Below are positions 7,913 to 27,824 of a stretch of 64,000 nucleotides of DNA, piece after piece. The DNA comes from Escherichia coli. GTDB taxonomy: Bacteria; Pseudomonadota; Gammaproteobacteria; Enterobacterales; Enterobacteriaceae. Location: assembly GCF_003018235.1 (NCBI RefSeq), contig NZ_CP027437.1; one strand, written 5' to 3'. The translations under genes and the position numbers were made by a program. A model generated the notes under the pieces. That model searched no databases. It saw only the letters and a list, made by a program, of their open reading frames with translations, and had not been told where the DNA came from. Every line of letters begins with the position of its first letter. The first letter of the stretch is position 1.

Positions 7913-7944
7913 AAAAATGCCAGCCTTCGGGCTGGCATTTTTTA
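7913..7944. terminator. Bidirectional rho-independent terminator between convergent eno and ygcG
   Basis: aaaaatgccagcc ttcg ggctggcatttttt: GC stem flanked by A-run and T-run. Confidence 0.85.
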
Positions 7945-9118: not shown

Positions 9119-9790
9119 ATGCAGTACCCGATTAACGAGATGTTCCAGACCCTGCAAGGTGAGGGTTACTTTACCGGCGTCCCCGCTATTTTTATTCGTT
9201 TACAGGGATGCCCGGTCGGCTGTGCCTGGTGCGACACCAAACACACATGGGAAAAGCTTGAGGATCGGGAAGTTTCCCTTTTCAGCATTCTGGGTAAAAC
9301 GAAAGAGAGTGATAAGTGGGGAGCAGCAAGCAGTGAAGACTTACTCGCAGTCATCGGTCGTCAGGGATACACCGCGCGTCACGTGGTGATTACGGGTGGT
9401 GAGCCTTGCATTCATGATTTGCTACCACTGACTGATCTGCTCGAAAAGAACGGTTTTAGCTGCCAGATCGAAACCAGTGGTACTCATGAGGTACGCTGCA
9501 CACCGAATACCTGGGTTACCGTATCACCAAAGCTGAACATGCGCGGCGGCTATGAAGTGTTGTCACAGGCACTGGAGCGAGCCAACGAAATCAAGCATCC
9601 AGTGGGACGCGTACGTGATATTGAAGCACTGGATGAACTTTTGGCGACGCTGACCGATGATAAACCGCGAGTCATTGCACTGCAGCCGATTAGCCAAAAG
9701 GATGATGCCACACGATTGTGCATTGAAACCTGCATTGCGCGTAATTGGCGTTTGTCGATGCAAACACATAAATATCTAAATATTGCCTGA
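9119..9790 (+). CDS. queE: 7-carboxy-7-deazaguanine synthase (radical SAM), queuosine biosynthesis
   Basis: 223-aa ORF with CPVGCAWCDTKH radical-SAM cysteine motif. Confidence 0.93.
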   Translation: MQYPINEMFQTLQGEGYFTGVPAIFIRLQGCPVGCAWCDTKHTWEKLEDREVSLFSILGKTKESDKWGAASSEDLLAVIGRQGYTARHVVITGGEPCIHDLLPLTDLLEKNGFSCQIETSGTHEVRCTPNTWVTVSPKLNMRGGYEVLSQALERANEIKHPVGRVRDIEALDELLATLTDDKPRVIALQPISQKDDATRLCIETCIARNWRLSMQTHKYLNIA

Positions 9791-9999
9791 TTAAACATTT
9801 ATAAGCGTTATAAATGGGTGGAACCTGTAAAGATTTCTACTCATTTATATTGTTTGTCGCCTCTGAAAACTCCTCCATTTTACCCATCCAGGGCTAATCA
9901 TTAGCATTCTCTACAAATTCTGCGGCATTAATTTTTCGCTGGAGTGAAAATTATTGCGGTAAAGTTTGGTAGATTTTAGTCGGTATAGGATTACTTTAA

Positions 10000-10128
10000 A
10001 TATTTAGCTTTTCAATCAATGAATTAAGTGCTCTTTAACATAATGGATGTGTTGTTTGTGTGATACTGTAAAGTTGGTAGATTGTGACTGGCTTAAAAAA
10101 TCATTAATTAATAATAGGTTATGTTTAG
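10000..10128 (+). promoter_or_regulatory. AT-rich CRISPR leader (approximate bounds)
   Basis: AT-rich non-coding stretch abutting the first, leader-proximal repeat; the degenerate repeat is at the opposite end of the array. Confidence 0.5.
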
Positions 10129-10400
10129 AGAGTTCCCCGCGCGAGCGGGGATAAACCGGCCGTCGCCGGATCAGCCTGGCTATGCCAGCAGAGTTCCCCG
10201 CGCCAGCGGGGATAAACCGGACGAACAAAATAAAAACCAACTGAATGATGCGAGTTCCCCGCGCCAGCGGGGATAAACCGCGAACCCTTGAACCGATAAG
10301 GGCGCTGTTTTGGAGTTCCCCGCGCCAGCGGGGATAAACCGGATAGGTGTTACACATATGACCTGGCACTGGCGAGTTTCCCGCGCCAGCGGGGATAACC
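10129..10400 (+). CRISPR. Type I-E-style CRISPR array, 5 repeats and 4 spacers
   Basis: 29-nt repeat gagttccccgcgccagcggggataaaccg at 10129 (variant cgcgag), 10190, 10251, 10312, plus degenerate terminal repeat at 10373-10400; four 32-nt spacers at 10158-10189, 10219-10250, 10280-10311, 10341-10372. Confidence 0.95.
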
Positions 10401-10447
10401 ATTCAGGTATGTTCAGGCCGGGCAGTTTCCCGCCCGGCCTTCCTCAC

Positions 10448-11925
10448 TTACGCATTCGACCAGCTCTGGATCGAATCCGCATTCCCCAATTCCCCATGCA
10501 TCACTTCATACGATTTTTTCAGGATTACATCAGTATGTTTGGTTAACTCCTTGAAAATGCTTTTATTCATCGCGTCGTAGCGTTTGGCACTGTTCTCAAC
10601 AGGCATAAAGATATCTTTCACGCGAACCATTTTGTCGACAGCCGTTGCGTAATCCGGGTATAGCCCCAGACCTACCGCCGTATTAATCGCTGCCCCCAGA
10701 CTTGCACAACCATTAATGGCGTTACGGCGTGCCGGAAGGTTGAACACGTCGGCAAAAATCTGCATAAACAGATCGCTGTTCGAACCGCCGCCAGTAATGA
10801 TCACATGCTTTGCAAAGTGATTCATTTCATTACACATATTGTCGTAATTGTTCTTCAGCGTCAGGCCACGCTTTCCAGTATCGAACGATATATCCATGCG
10901 TAATCCATGCTGGAATCAAAGCCAATCATAATCCCGCGTTTGTACGGTTCCCACGGATTGGTCAGCCAGTCCAGCACCGTCATCAGACCATTACAGCCTG
11001 GCGGCACACAAGACGCTTTTTTGTTGAGCAAATCTTCCGGTGAAAGATCCTGTGCTTTGGCATCCTGAATTAACGACTCGCCTAACATGTCGCGTAGCCA
11101 GCTCACCGTCCACATGCCTTTGCGAATACCGTAACCTTCATACAGCAAGGTTTGCGGAATAGAAGACATAATCGGCCAGTACGCTACCGGATCTTTCGGT
11201 AGTAATTTGCCGTTCATCATCAACGCGATGTAAGTGCCAAGAGAAATTACCGCAGTTTCATCATCCAGTAACCCGGCTCCCAGTGCTTCTACCGGTTTAT
11301 CACTGGTGGTACAAACAACCGGCAGCCCAGCCGGGAAATGTGTCGCCAGCGCGGCTTGAGGAGTGATATGCCCAAGAACAGTGCCCGGCATTTGCACATC
11401 AAACAGCATATGACGGGGGATATTAAACTTCTCCATGACTGCGGCATCTTCACTCCATGCCCAGGTCTTATAATCCACCGGCCACTGACCAAAATAGTTG
11501 GCGATATTGTCTTTAAACTCGCCGGTTAAGCGATGCGTCAGATAACCTGAAAAAGAGGTGACATATGCCACGTCAGGATTCGTATGTTCGTAAGGGCGTG
11601 TAACGCGTGCATCCTGCCAGCTAATCAACGGCGCAGCTGGCGTGCCATCGGCTTTCAATAACGCACGGCAGCAACGGATGGATCCCAGACCAATACCGAC
11701 AATATCTTCTTTATTCCCGGCAAACTGACTCATCAAATCGTGACCGGCAAAACATAATGATGCCCATAAATCGTCGTCAGGATGTTCTGCGGTATCGGCA
11801 TCTGGCGTGTGCATCGGCTGCAATAAGCCTTTGCCTTCGCAAACCACATTACCTTCCAGATCATACATCACCACTTTTGTGCTCTGACTTCCGCCATCAA
11901 TCCCTATGATGTATTTTTTCGACAT
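10448..11925 (-). pseudogene. ygcE: FGGY-family sugar kinase gene split by a frameshift (two ORFs overlapping at 10861-10897)
   Basis: N-terminal ORF 10861-11925 ends ...YRSILESVA*; the other frame continues ...LTLKNNYDNM... to 10448; restoring one C in the minus-strand run gtggcc-ctgacg rejoins them into a 492-codon frame. Confidence 0.7.
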
Positions 11926-13440: not shown

Positions 13441-13523
13441 ATGATAAAAATTATCTCCAGTTACCAGAGATAATGAGAAAGGTAACTTCCCTCTCGCGGG
13501 GGAAGTTACCTTTCTTTTTTTTT
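13441..13523 (+). promoter_or_regulatory. Attenuator-like leader upstream of ygcW: hairpin, alternative pairing, intrinsic terminator, possible 10-codon leader ORF
   Basis: Hairpin 1 attatctc/gagataat (13450-13474); terminator stem ggtaacttccc/gggaagttacc (13481-13510) followed by a 13-nt T-rich tract (tttc + 9 T, 13511-13523); agttacc in the hairpin-1 loop is complementary to the terminator 5' arm; ORF MIKIISSYQR at 13441-13473. Confidence 0.45.
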
Positions 13524-23722: not shown

Positions 23723-25434
23723 TGAGCGAAAAACATCCAGGGCCTTCAGTGGTCGAAGGAAAACTGACAGACGCCGAGCGCATGAAGCTTGAAAGCAACT
23801 ACCTGCGCGGCACCATTGCGGAAGATTTAAACGACGGTCTGACCGGTGGTTTTAAGGGCGACAACTTCCTGCTGATCCGCTTCCACGGCATGTATCAGCA
23901 GGATGACCGCGACATCCGCGCCGAACGTGCTGAACAGAAGCTGGAGCCACGTCATGCAATGCTGTTGCGCTGTCGTCTGCCGGGTGGGGTGATTACCACC
24001 AAACAGTGGCAGGCGATCGATAAATTTGCCGGTGAAAACACCATCTATGGCAGCATTCGCCTGACCAACCGCCAGACGTTTCAGTTCCACGGCATTCTGA
24101 AAAAGAACGTCAAACCGGTGCACCAGATGCTGCACTCGGTCGGTCTTGATGCGCTGGCGACTGCTAACGACATGAACCGTAACGTGCTGTGCACTTCGAA
24201 CCCGTTCGAGTCGCAGCTGCACGCGGAAGCCTATGAATGGGCGAAGAAAATCTCTGAACATCTGCTGCCTCGTACCCGCGCGTATGCAGAGATCTGGCTC
24301 GATCAGGAAAAAGTCGCCACTACTGATGAAGAGCCGATCCTTGGTCAGACCTACCTGCCGCGTAAGTTCAAAACCACGGTAGTGATCCCGCCGCAGAACG
24401 ATATCGATCTGCACGCCAACGACATGAACTTCGTGGCGATCGCCGAAAACGGCAAGCTGGTGGGCTTTAACCTGCTGGTGGGCGGTGGGCTTTCCATCGA
24501 GCACGGCAACAAGAAAACCTACGCCCGCACCGCGAGTGAGTTTGGCTATCTGCCGCTGGAGCATACACTGGCAGTGGCGGAAGCCGTCGTGACAACTCAG
24601 CGTGACTGGGGTAACCGAACCGATCGTAAAAATGCCAAAACCAAATACACGCTGGAGCGCGTGGGGGTTGAGACGTTTAAAGCGGAAGTGGAGCGTCGCG
24701 CGGGGATCAAATTTGAACCGATCCGTCCGTATGAGTTCACCGGACGCGGCGATCGTATTGGTTGGGTTAAGGGCATTGATGATAACTGGCACCTGACGCT
24801 GTTTATCGAAAATGGTCGCATCCTTGATTATCCGGGGCGTCCGCTGAAAACTGGCCTGCTGGAGATCGCGAAGATCCACAAAGGTGATTTCCGCATTACG
24901 GCGAACCAGAATCTGATCATCGCCGGTGTGCCGGAAAGCGAGAAAGCGAAGATCGAGAAGATCGCCAAAGAGAGCGGGTTAATGAATGCCGTCACGCCGC
25001 AGCGTGAAAACTCAATGGCCTGCGTGTCATTCCCGACTTGCCCGCTGGCGATGGCCGAAGCCGAGCGTTTCCTGCCGTCTTTTATCGACAACATCGATAA
25101 TTTAATGGCGAAACATGGTGTCAGCGATGAGCATATCGTGATGCGTGTAACAGGCTGCCCGAACGGTTGTGGTCGCGCGATGCTGGCGGAAGTGGGCCTG
25201 GTGGGTAAAGCGCCGGGTCGCTACAACCTGCATCTTGGCGGCAACCGCATTGGGACACGTATCCCACGGATGTATAAAGAAAACATCACCGAGCCGGAAA
25301 TCCTGGCGTCGCTTGATGAACTGATAGGGCGCTGGGCGAAAGAGCGCGAAGCGGGTGAAGGCTTCGGCGACTTTACGGTGCGTGCGGGCATCATTCGCCC
25401 GGTGCTCGATCCGGCGCGCGATTTGTGGGATTAA
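23722..25434 (+). CDS. cysI: Sulfite reductase [NADPH] hemoprotein beta subunit
   Basis: 570-aa ORF; nitrite/sulfite reductase siroheme Fe-S family. Confidence 0.97.
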
Positions 25435-25450
25435 CCATCAGCCCGGTCTT

Positions 25451-25486
25451 GTAGGCCTGATAAGACGCGTGAGCGTCGCATCAGGC
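25451..25486. repeat. REP element between cysI and cysH
   Basis: gtaggcctgataagacgcgtgagcgtcgcatcaggc palindromic unit. Confidence 0.7.
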
Positions 25487-25507
25487 AAGGCAAACAGTGA
25501 GGAATCT

Positions 25508-26242
25508 ATGTCCAAACTCGATCTAAACGCCCTGAACGAACTGCCGAAGGTAGATCGCATTCTGGCGCTGGCAGAAACTAACGCCGAACTGGAAAAACTG
25601 GATGCTGAAGGCCGCGTTGCCTGGGCGCTGGATAATCTGCCCGGTGAATATGTACTTTCTTCCAGTTTCGGCATTCAGGCGGCGGTGAGCCTGCATCTGG
25701 TGAATCAGATTCACCCGGATATCCCGGTGATCCTGACCGATACGGGTTATCTGTTCCCGGAAACCTACCGCTTTATTGACGAGTTAACGGACAAACTCAA
25801 GCTCAACCTGAAAGTGTACCGCGCTACCGAAAGCGCCGCCTGGCAGGAAGCGCGCTACGGCAAACTGTGGGAGCAGGGTGTTGAAGGCATTGAAAAGTAC
25901 AATGACATCAACAAAGTCGAACCGATGAACCGGGCGCTGAAAGAACTGAATGCGCAAACGTGGTTTGCTGGCCTGCGCCGCGAACAATCCGGCAGTCGCG
26001 CCAATTTACCGGTGCTGGCAATTCAGCGTGGCGTATTTAAAGTGCTGCCGATTATCGACTGGGATAACCGAACGATATATCAGTATCTGCAAAAACATGG
26101 CCTGAAATATCACCCATTATGGGACGAAGGATATTTATCGGTCGGTGATACCCATACAACCCGTAAATGGGAACCCGGCATGGCGGAAGAAGAAACGCGT
26201 TTCTTTGGCTTAAAAAGAGAATGTGGTTTACACGAAGGGTAA
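25508..26242 (+). CDS. cysH: Phosphoadenosine phosphosulfate (PAPS) reductase
   Basis: ORF 25355-26242; start set at [14 protein letters not shown] (244 aa); C-terminal ECGLH motif. Confidence 0.95.
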
Positions 26243-26260
26243 ATGTTATCCGGATAAATT

Positions 26261-26299
26261 AAACGCCTCTGTCAGAAATGATGGGGGCGTTTTTATTTT
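26261..26299 (+). terminator. Rho-independent terminator after cysH
   Basis: aaacgcc...ggcgttt stem followed by ttttatttt. Confidence 0.6.
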
Positions 26300-26409
26300 G
26301 CGAGCAGCATTCCTGATTTTAAACGTGAACGCCGCTGGAAGAATCAACAGGTATAGAATGGTGTCGGGTGCTTGAGGCTGTCTGGCGTTAAGCATTCGCG
26401 AGGTTCCAG

Positions 26410-26514
26410 ATGGACAAAAGCCCCAGGCGATATTTCTATCAACCTGAGGCCAGCGTTCGAACCCAAACAATTCGAATGTTAGTCTCTTCTTTGCAGGGAG
26501 GCAAGACATGCTGA
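26410..26514 (+). CDS. mok-like leader ORF overlapping the hok-like start (34 codons)
   Basis: ATG at 26410, stop TGA at 26512-26514 overlapping the downstream ATG (acATGcTGA); translation [34 protein letters not shown]. Confidence 0.4.
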
Positions 26515-26660
26515 CAAAATATGCCCTTGTGGCAATCATAGTGCTGTGTTTTACAGTACTGGGATTCACGCTGATGGTAGGCGACTCGTTGTGTGAGTTG
26601 AGTATCAGAGAACGTGGTATGGAGTTTAAGGCAGTTCTCGCTTACGAATCGAAGAAGTAG
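26508..26660 (+). CDS. Hok/Gef-family membrane toxin (type I toxin-antitoxin), 50 aa
   Basis: [50 protein letters not shown]: single TM helix plus conserved LCEL..R.G..E..A..AYES.K tail; below the ORF-track size cutoff. Confidence 0.8.
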
Positions 26661-26786
26661 CCACCACGCGGGGGTAAAACCCCGCGTACTGAATTGTTAA
26701 AGTTTGGCCTCCTGCACCCCTTTTTTATACTCTGTTTCTGGTGGCATTGATTTCCTGCAGGCAAGGGAGTAATCATTTCAAACCCA

Positions 26787-27824
26787 TCAAGACGCCTTCG
26801 CCAGCTCCTTCACCAGCGGTAGCATTATCCGCATAACATCACGGCAGCGACGTTCTATTCTTCCTGGAAGTGCCTTATCAATATGTTGTTGATTATCCAG
26901 TCTTACGTCATGCCAGCTATTTCCCGCAGGGAATGCAGCTGTTTTTGCGCGTTGCTGATAACCATCCTTATTCCCAAGATTCCAATTTGTTGCTTCTACC
27001 GAAAGTACGGCAATACCGGCTTTGTCGAAAACTTCGGCGTCATTACAACAGCCAGTACCCTTCGGATAATTTTTATTCAAACCCGGATTGGTCGTTGCGG
27101 CAATTCCATGACTACGCGCAATTGCCAGCGCCCTGTCGCGCGTTAATTTCCTTACTGCTTCAGGGGTTTTTACGCCGCTGTTGAAATACAATTTATCGCC
27201 AACAATTAAGTTATCGAGATTAATCACCAGCAGCGTATTTTTCTTTTCGGTGTCACTCATCCGCTTGAGTAAATTCTCAGCACCTAATTTCCCTTCCTCT
27301 TCACCACTGGTCGCCACAAATCGAATACCATACTCGGTAGGCGTATTTTTCAGGCGTTCTGCCAATTCCAGCATGACACCTAAACCTGCAGCGTTATCAT
27401 CCATTCCTTGTAACGTCAGTCCGCCGAGATTGGCATCGGCGTCAGCATCGCTCAGCGGGGCGTAAGTATCCAGATGCGCCATAATGATGATCTGCTGCGG
27501 CGCTTTGCCTTCATGAGCGGCAATCACCGTACTTCCCGTCACGTTATGCCAGCTCTTGCGATTATCGCGGGCGGTATAAATATACCGACTATTAAATGTC
27601 CGAATATCACTGCGATAACCCATTTGCTGAAACTGTTGGCGAATATAATCGGCAGATAACATTTCTGCTGGAGTTCCGGTCATGCGTCCCGGAAAGAAAG
27701 TAGCAATATGTCGTGCCTGAGTATTAGCAAAATCGCCAGGTTTAGATGACGAGGCGTGTACGGGGAGAATAAAGCATACGCCGAGCGCCAGGGCAGCGGT
27801 ACGGTGGCGCAATGCGGAAAACAT
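26787..27824 (-). CDS. iap: Alkaline phosphatase isozyme conversion aminopeptidase
   Basis: 345-aa ORF with signal peptide; M28 peptidase family; convergent with cysH. Confidence 0.9.
   Translation of the reverse strand: MFSALRHRTAALALGVCFILPVHASSSKPGDFANTQARHIATFFPGRMTGTPAEMLSADYIRQQFQQMGYRSDIRTFNSRYIYTARDNRKSWHNVTGSTVIAAHEGKAPQQIIIMAHLDTYAPLSDADADANLGGLTLQGMDDNAAGLGVMLELAERLKNTPTEYGIRFVATSGEEEGKLGAENLLKRMSDTEKKNTLLVINLDNLIVGDKLYFNSGVKTPEAVRKLTRDRALAIARSHGIAATTNPGLNKNYPKGTGCCNDAEVFDKAGIAVLSVEATNWNLGNKDGYQQRAKTAAFPAGNSWHDVRLDNQQHIDKALPGRIERRCRDVMRIMLPLVKELAKAS

Follow-up and report, generated by a model that had tools for sequence, protein, structure and literature searches.

A conserved GC-rich hairpin between the CRISPR-II array and ygcE of Escherichia coli as a probable ancestral gene-end stem-loop

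Introduction

The CRISPR-II array of Escherichia coli ends close to the stop codon of ygcE, and a GC-rich hairpin fills most of the short interval between the two. The question raised by this locus is whether the hairpin belongs to the array, as the decayed remnant of a repeat, or to the genes on either side of it, as a structure at the 3′ end of a transcript. Both ideas had been put forward in an original prediction for the 64,000-nt stretch of E. coli DNA analysed here, which is referred to as the window.

The locus in the window

The features of the window on which the account depends are the following:

9119-9790, plus strand: queE (ygcF), the convergent ancestral partner of ygcE, adjoining the leader region
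9791-10129, plus strand: AT-rich leader region, from the queE stop to the first repeat
10130-10402, plus strand: CRISPR-II (CRISPR2.2-3) array, five repeats and four spacers with a 61-nt period
10374-10402, plus strand: terminal degenerate type I-E repeat, GAGTTTCCCGCGCCAGCGGGGATAACCAT
10403-10414, plus strand: 12-nt linker from the terminal repeat to the hairpin, TCAGGTATGTTC
10415-10440, no strand assigned: GC-rich stem-loop, arms 10415-10423 and 10432-10440
10441-10447, minus strand: 7-nt linker from the ygcE stop to the hairpin, GUGAGGA in the ygcE sense
10441-10520, plus strand: tract rich in C and poor in G (29 C to 9 G), following the hairpin in the array sense
10448-11925, minus strand: ygcE (FGGY-family sugar kinase), stop codon TAA at 10448-10450
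26366-26523: sok (RF01794), 111 bits
26508-26660: Hok ORF
26787-27824, minus strand: iap

The repeats start at 10130, 10191, 10252, 10313 and 10374, and the array is transcribed from the leader on the queE side towards the hairpin. The names CRISPR-II and CRISPR2.2-3 are taken from PMC3903273. The first, leader-proximal repeat (10130-10158) carries a C-to-G change in its loop (GCGCGAGCGGGG). The third spacer (10285-10312, plus strand) contains a terminator-like hairpin and a T-run, CCCTTGAACCGATAAGGG CGCTGTTTTG, on the transcribed strand. This is the only terminator-like site found by the scan in 9700-11000, and it could truncate the precursor RNA.

The array holds the only I-E repeats in the window. 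Further along, cysH, the hok/sok module and iap are directly adjacent (25355-27824), leaving no cas-E operon and no CRISPR2.1 array between cysH/hok-sok and iap. Within the window the CRISPR-II array thus has no I-E cas genes to accompany it and is an orphan. The ygcE gene has a 1-nt deletion near 10865 in comparison with K-12 (the G at nt 1062 of K-12 ygcE), which splits it into ORFs at 10448-10897 and 10861-11925, and it is probably a pseudogene here. It is likewise annotated as frameshifted in E. coli strain 2013C-3342. With ygcE split and both cas-E and CRISPR2.1 missing, the two transcription units that flank the hairpin are probably decaying in this genome. The hairpin itself was inherited and not newly made, and as ygcE is frameshifted and the window has no cas genes, it may now be without a purpose here.

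Over 25 kb (positions 1-25000 of the window) the closest match among 5426 complete E. coli genomes reaches only ~98% identity, and the ygcE of the window differs from that of K-12 at 61 of 1479 nt. The lineage of the window is therefore not closely represented among the complete E. coli assemblies; it is possibly Shigella-like or a divergent clade.

Structure and position of the hairpin

On the plus strand, the left arm AGGCCGGGC (10415-10423) and the right arm GCCCGGCCT (10432-10440) form a perfect stem of 9 bp, eight of them G-C, around the 8-nt loop AGTTTCCC (10424-10431). The structure on the minus strand, the sense of ygcE, has 11 pairs including one G.U pair and is closed by a GAAA tetraloop. 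The centroid fold energies are -18.2 kcal/mol for the plus strand and -25.5 kcal/mol for the minus strand, with z-scores of -3.5 and -4.6, respectively, and none of 200 shuffles folded equally well. Distinct perfect hairpins of at least 9 bp are few, at only ~10 across the 64-kb window. One of the others, at 13476-13515, has a perfect stem of 16 bp and, going by the TUM14771 annotation, lies between the yqcE and ygcW orthologues.

The hairpin is thus separated from the terminal degenerate repeat by 12 nt and from the stop codon of ygcE by 7 nt. The GC-stem structure that had been described from the sequence is real, with a perfect 9-bp stem at the same site; the sequence had been read correctly, and the division into a 7-nt loop and a 10-nt right arm was one base off. 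An 11-mer had also been described as common to the hairpin and the terminal repeat. Ten of its 11 nt are shared, the exact common string being AGTTTCCCGC at 10375 and 10424, and the full CAGTTTCCCGC occurs only at 10423.

The hairpin in other Enterobacteriaceae

Species-representative genomes were scanned with the YgcE protein, which yielded 31 Enterobacteriaceae loci. In all 26 of the non-Escherichia loci queE converges on ygcE at a distance of 36-122 nt, and the ygcE-queE interval is free of CRISPR repeats in each of them. The leader, the array and the 12-nt linker together make up a block that is missing from these loci. Most of them contain one GC-rich hairpin starting ~7-19 nt past the ygcE stop, with the queE stop 5-16 nt beyond the hairpin in these other genera. 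A hairpin of the form GCCGG...CCGGC occupies the corresponding place in 13 of the 26. The GC-rich hairpins past the ygcE stop include those of Citrobacter youngae (GCCGGGTGG-CGACAT-CCACCCGGC), Raoultella and one Enterobacter (GCCGGGTAG...CTACCCGGC), Superficieibacter (GCCGGATGG...CCATCCGGC) and Klebsiella spallanzanii (CACCGGGCGG...CCGCCCGGTG). Within Escherichia, the lineage L035 contains AGAGCGGGCGG-GAAA-CCGCCCGCTCT, which shows compensatory changes relative to E. coli, and its 138-nt ygcE-queE spacer has no repeat or array.

Seventeen sequences, four from Escherichia and 13 from other genera, can be aligned in register with an invariant CCGG/CCGG core. Across the 11-pair helix of this alignment 90.3% of the cells are paired, compared with 31-46% when the partner is slid, both-sided (compensatory) changes are found at 8 of the 11 pairs, and none of 500 shuffles reached the covariation score; the statistics are somewhat flattering, since the 17 were picked after the simple hairpin had been seen and the other 14 of the 31 loci were left out. 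Among the 14 are loci with REP-like inserts, with canonical terminators or with a hairpin that is different or imperfect, and two Escherichia lineages with a decayed or shortened version of this same hairpin. In several other genera the ygcE-queE intergenic region is occupied by REP-like elements. For sequences picked in this manner, the compensatory changes that keep the pairing across species point to a conserved structured element. Two loci from two genera (L019 and L020) carry a canonical bidirectional terminator, composed of an A-tract, a hairpin and a T-tract, at the very same site, which suggests that the role of the site is 3′-end formation.

Distribution in E. coli

The 42-nt hairpin segment is present in 4533 of the 5426 complete E. 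coli genomes and is identical in 2567 of the carriers, including the K-12 derivatives. On the K-12 chromosome the hairpin occupies ~2903382-2903407, 7 nt past the ygcE stop at 2903374. Searches with this 42-nt query found a median of one place per genome and a highest number of two, even at E<=10. A dispersed REP/BIME palindrome is ruled out by this single-copy occurrence. The hairpin is similar to REP/BIME elements in being a GC-rich extragenic palindrome at the 3′ end of a gene, and differs from them in being single-copy in E. coli genomes with no match elsewhere.

In ~850 genomes the matching sequence begins no earlier than the first base beyond the hairpin. In one of these strains a sugar-utilisation island replaces the queE/array side, and the hairpin past the ygcE stop is a different one, GCCGGG-12 nt-CCCGGC. 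The site is replaced by a different hairpin in B2-type strains, and some E. coli variants have a mismatch near the base of the stem. In strain SA31-1 an IS3 is found in the 3′ end of ygcE, ~25 nt from the hairpin.

K-12 (L005, 2440-3060), L092, L004 and others have two arrays, with a 0.5-kb AT-rich block between CRISPR2.3 and a short, decayed CRISPR2.2 beside the hairpin. The form in the window is a fused single array (CRISPR2.2-3), unlike that of K-12.

Relation to the CRISPR repeats

The first proposal was that the hairpin began as a type I-E repeat of an array once longer than today and has since decayed. Both the hairpin and the repeat, which belongs to type I-E (type 2) and includes the degenerate terminal ‘anchor’ form (PMC3903273), are GC-rich palindromes, the hairpin adjoins the oldest end of the array, and the 10-nt string is an exact match to the terminal repeat of the window. 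The local alignment score against this terminal repeat is 11, a value reached by only 0.75% of the controls (shuffled versions of the segment and 45-nt windows taken from the same 64 kb). With the consensus I-E repeat, however, the score falls to 9, which is equalled by 7% of windows and 9% of shuffles and is at chance level. The extra match to the terminal repeat is due to a lineage-specific C-to-T change (T at 10379, GAGTTTCCCG). The corresponding sequence in K-12 and nine other E. coli strains, which lack the change, is GTTCCCCGCG(T/C)CAGCGGGGATAAC(C/T)A.

The register of the array also argues against a repeat. The 61-nt period predicts the next repeat at 10435; the repeat-like string starts at 10423/10424, only 49-50 nt from the start of the terminal repeat. 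The linker in front of the hairpin, at 12 nt, is too short for a 32-nt spacer. The stem is not that of the repeat either, as the matching bases form the loop and 3′ arm of the hairpin, but the handle and 5′ arm of the repeat. Comparison with strains carrying longer arrays had been suggested as a check on the proposal, and the spacing between terminal repeat and hairpin core (GTT to GCCGGG) is 41 nt in every array compared, in strains with 2, 5, 9, 12, 15 and 15 repeats. This constancy agrees with the report that the flanks of CRISPR-II are invariant among strains (PMC3903273).

The proposal was to fall if orthologous regions showed the sequence to be unrelated to CRISPR repeats, and this is what they show. 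Homologous hairpins are found with no array at the locus in the 13 aligned non-Escherichia sequences and in L035. In comparison with the repeat, the hairpin is out of register, is built on another stem, resembles the consensus no more than expected by chance and occurs at loci that have no array. A remnant of a repeat is extremely improbable as its origin and is rejected; as judged from these sequence comparisons, the hairpin is not derived from a CRISPR repeat.

Features of a 3′ end and the evidence on strand

The second proposal was that of a structured 3′ end for ygcE. No U tract follows the stem on either strand, the tails being TCCTCACT (plus) and GAACATAC (minus), and a consensus terminator scan misses the hairpin on both. 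A canonical Rho-independent terminator was considered and rejected; the stable GC-rich stem-loop is there and the U-rich tract is not. As the tract is missing from both strands, canonical intrinsic termination is not expected. The hairpin resembles bidirectional intrinsic terminators, such as that of eno/ygcG, in that one hairpin stands in a short gap between convergent genes (ancestrally ygcE and queE), and differs from them in having no flanking A tract and T tract. The element between eno and ygcG (7913-7942) is a canonical bidirectional terminator, AAAAATGCCAGCC-TTCG-GGCTGGCATTTTT.

Among E. coli transcripts that terminate with Rho, a class has been described whose steady-state 3′ ends carry stable stem-loops with no U tract (Dar & Sorek 2018, PMC6061677). 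Such structures shield the RNA from PNPase and RNase II, and the sequence after them is enriched in C over G. The hairpin shares with them a stable GC-rich stem-loop located right after a gene, with neither a U tract nor an upstream A tract. Downstream of the hairpin the excess of C over G is strong in the plus sense (C/G of 2.06 over 120 nt, and 29:9 in the first 80 nt) but only mild in the minus (ygcE) sense (1.27, in a region structured by repeats). The plus-sense tract at 10441-10520 is antisense to the 3′ end of ygcE, and its composition could be described as rut-like by comparison with the architecture of PMC6061677. Unlike the members of this class, the hairpin stands between convergent units and could serve both. 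Since neither strand has a U tract, we infer a U-less 3′-end or protective stem-loop common to the convergent transcripts.

The evidence on strand points both ways. Among the wobble pairs of the 17 species, seven are sense-only and six are antisense-only. Two independent E. coli variants, C-to-T at 10435 and C-to-T at 10438, keep their pairing as G.U only in the plus sense. The G.U pair and the GAAA loop in Escherichia favour the ygcE (minus) sense.

The Term-seq and 3′-end supplements of PMC7815308 and PMC12207403 contain no entries for ygcE, queE or ygcF. No Rfam family reached its gathering score on the hairpin, sok being the only family to pass in the window, and nothing came near threshold over 10415-10440 under permissive settings. 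A literature search on ygcE with CRISPR, terminator and ygcF found no description of the hairpin.

Proposed origin and alternative explanations

The hairpin is probably an ancestral stem-loop of the ygcE-queE gene ends that is older than the array, has no U tract and may act in 3′-end formation or protection. It would have stood just past the ygcE stop, where the transcription of ygcE and queE converges, before a block made up of the CRISPR-II leader, the array and the 12-nt linker entered the interval on its queE side within the Escherichia lineage. Such a later insertion is the simplest reading of the sequences compared, in which the hairpin appears to predate the array, and by the insertion of this block the hairpin would now happen to sit 12 nt beyond the terminal repeat. 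A comparison by eye of the 12-nt linker with the 3′ end of queE, made in case a target had been duplicated, gave no convincing similarity. In RNA form it would be a very stable stem-loop with no U tract. On the minus strand it may mark the 3′ end of the ygcE mRNA and shield it against 3′-5′ exonucleases after transcription has stopped inefficiently or with the aid of Rho. On the other strand it may once have done the same for queE and may do so now for read-through CRISPR transcripts. The outcome would be to limit antisense transcription from either side into the other. We infer the function at the RNA level, the involvement of Rho and exonucleases and the strand that matters. Comparison supports the structured 3′ end proposed for ygcE, through the position of the hairpin, its conservation and the covariation of its stem, and the opposite strand may be served just as well. 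A separate AT-rich hairpin with a perfect 9-bp stem (CATTTATAAGCGTTATAAATG) is found at 9796-9816, 6 nt past the queE stop; it may now end the queE transcripts, the ancestral hairpin being ~620 nt away.

It is also conceivable that in Escherichia the hairpin acts mainly in the plus sense, as a 3′ end or terminator of the CRISPR-II precursor that is followed by a Rho-loading tract and insulates ygcE from antisense read-through. The hairpin is the first strong structure past the last repeat on the transcribed strand, the next 80 nt form a C-rich, G-poor (29 C to 9 G) untranslated antisense RNA, and the order of stem-loop and then rut is that of PMC6061677. The two C-to-T variants fit this sense, and the tail UUCCUCACUU holds some U, although a U tract is absent by the scan criteria. 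The hairpin is nevertheless older than the array, its plus-strand fold, which has an 8-nt loop, is the weaker one at -18.2 kcal/mol compared with -25.5 kcal/mol, the GAAA loop and the G.U pair seen in Escherichia point to the minus sense, and the C-rich composition may only mirror the coding constraints of ygcE. A mainly plus-sense role is unlikely, and it would be compatible with the ancestral gene-end stem-loop and not exclusive of it. Also unlikely is the suggestion that the hairpin was a landmark for the integration of the leader and array in the Escherichia ancestor and later took on the role of a bidirectional Rho-linked insulator, which sets the 3′ end of the CRISPR-II precursor and blocks antisense silencing of ygcE. 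If this were true, the hairpin would decide what becomes of the RNA sequence beyond the terminal degenerate repeat.

A structure with no present function in RNA, either a neutral GC-rich palindrome or a relic at the DNA level (for example the boundary of a recombination or insertion event) maintained by a low input of mutations, is improbable. It would account for a ygcE that is a pseudogene in the window and frameshifted in at least one other strain, for the tolerance of mismatches at the base of the stem in E. coli, and for the replacement of the site by a different hairpin in B2-type strains or by REP-like elements in several genera. It does not sit well with double compensatory changes at 8 of 11 pairs, or with 90% of cells paired against ~40% in the slid controls. 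The replacements found at the site are again hairpins or canonical terminators, which argues for selection on structure at this position.

Significance

The sequence past the terminal repeat of CRISPR-II holds no record of a longer ancestral array, and a false lead is thereby removed. The comparison also fixes the ygcE-side boundary of the Escherichia-only CRISPR-II block, which extends from 9791, just past the queE stop, to ~10414. The ancestral ygcE-queE intergenic region would have been a spacer of ~40 nt with one hairpin. On the evidence of the sequences, the hairpin is a real and conserved but ordinary gene-end stem-loop of an already known type, for which a 3′-end role is supported comparatively. 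As a routine structure of this kind, it is a further candidate for the stem-loops that stand at 3′ ends with no U tract, and it may be a natural insulator that separates a CRISPR array from the gene convergent with it.
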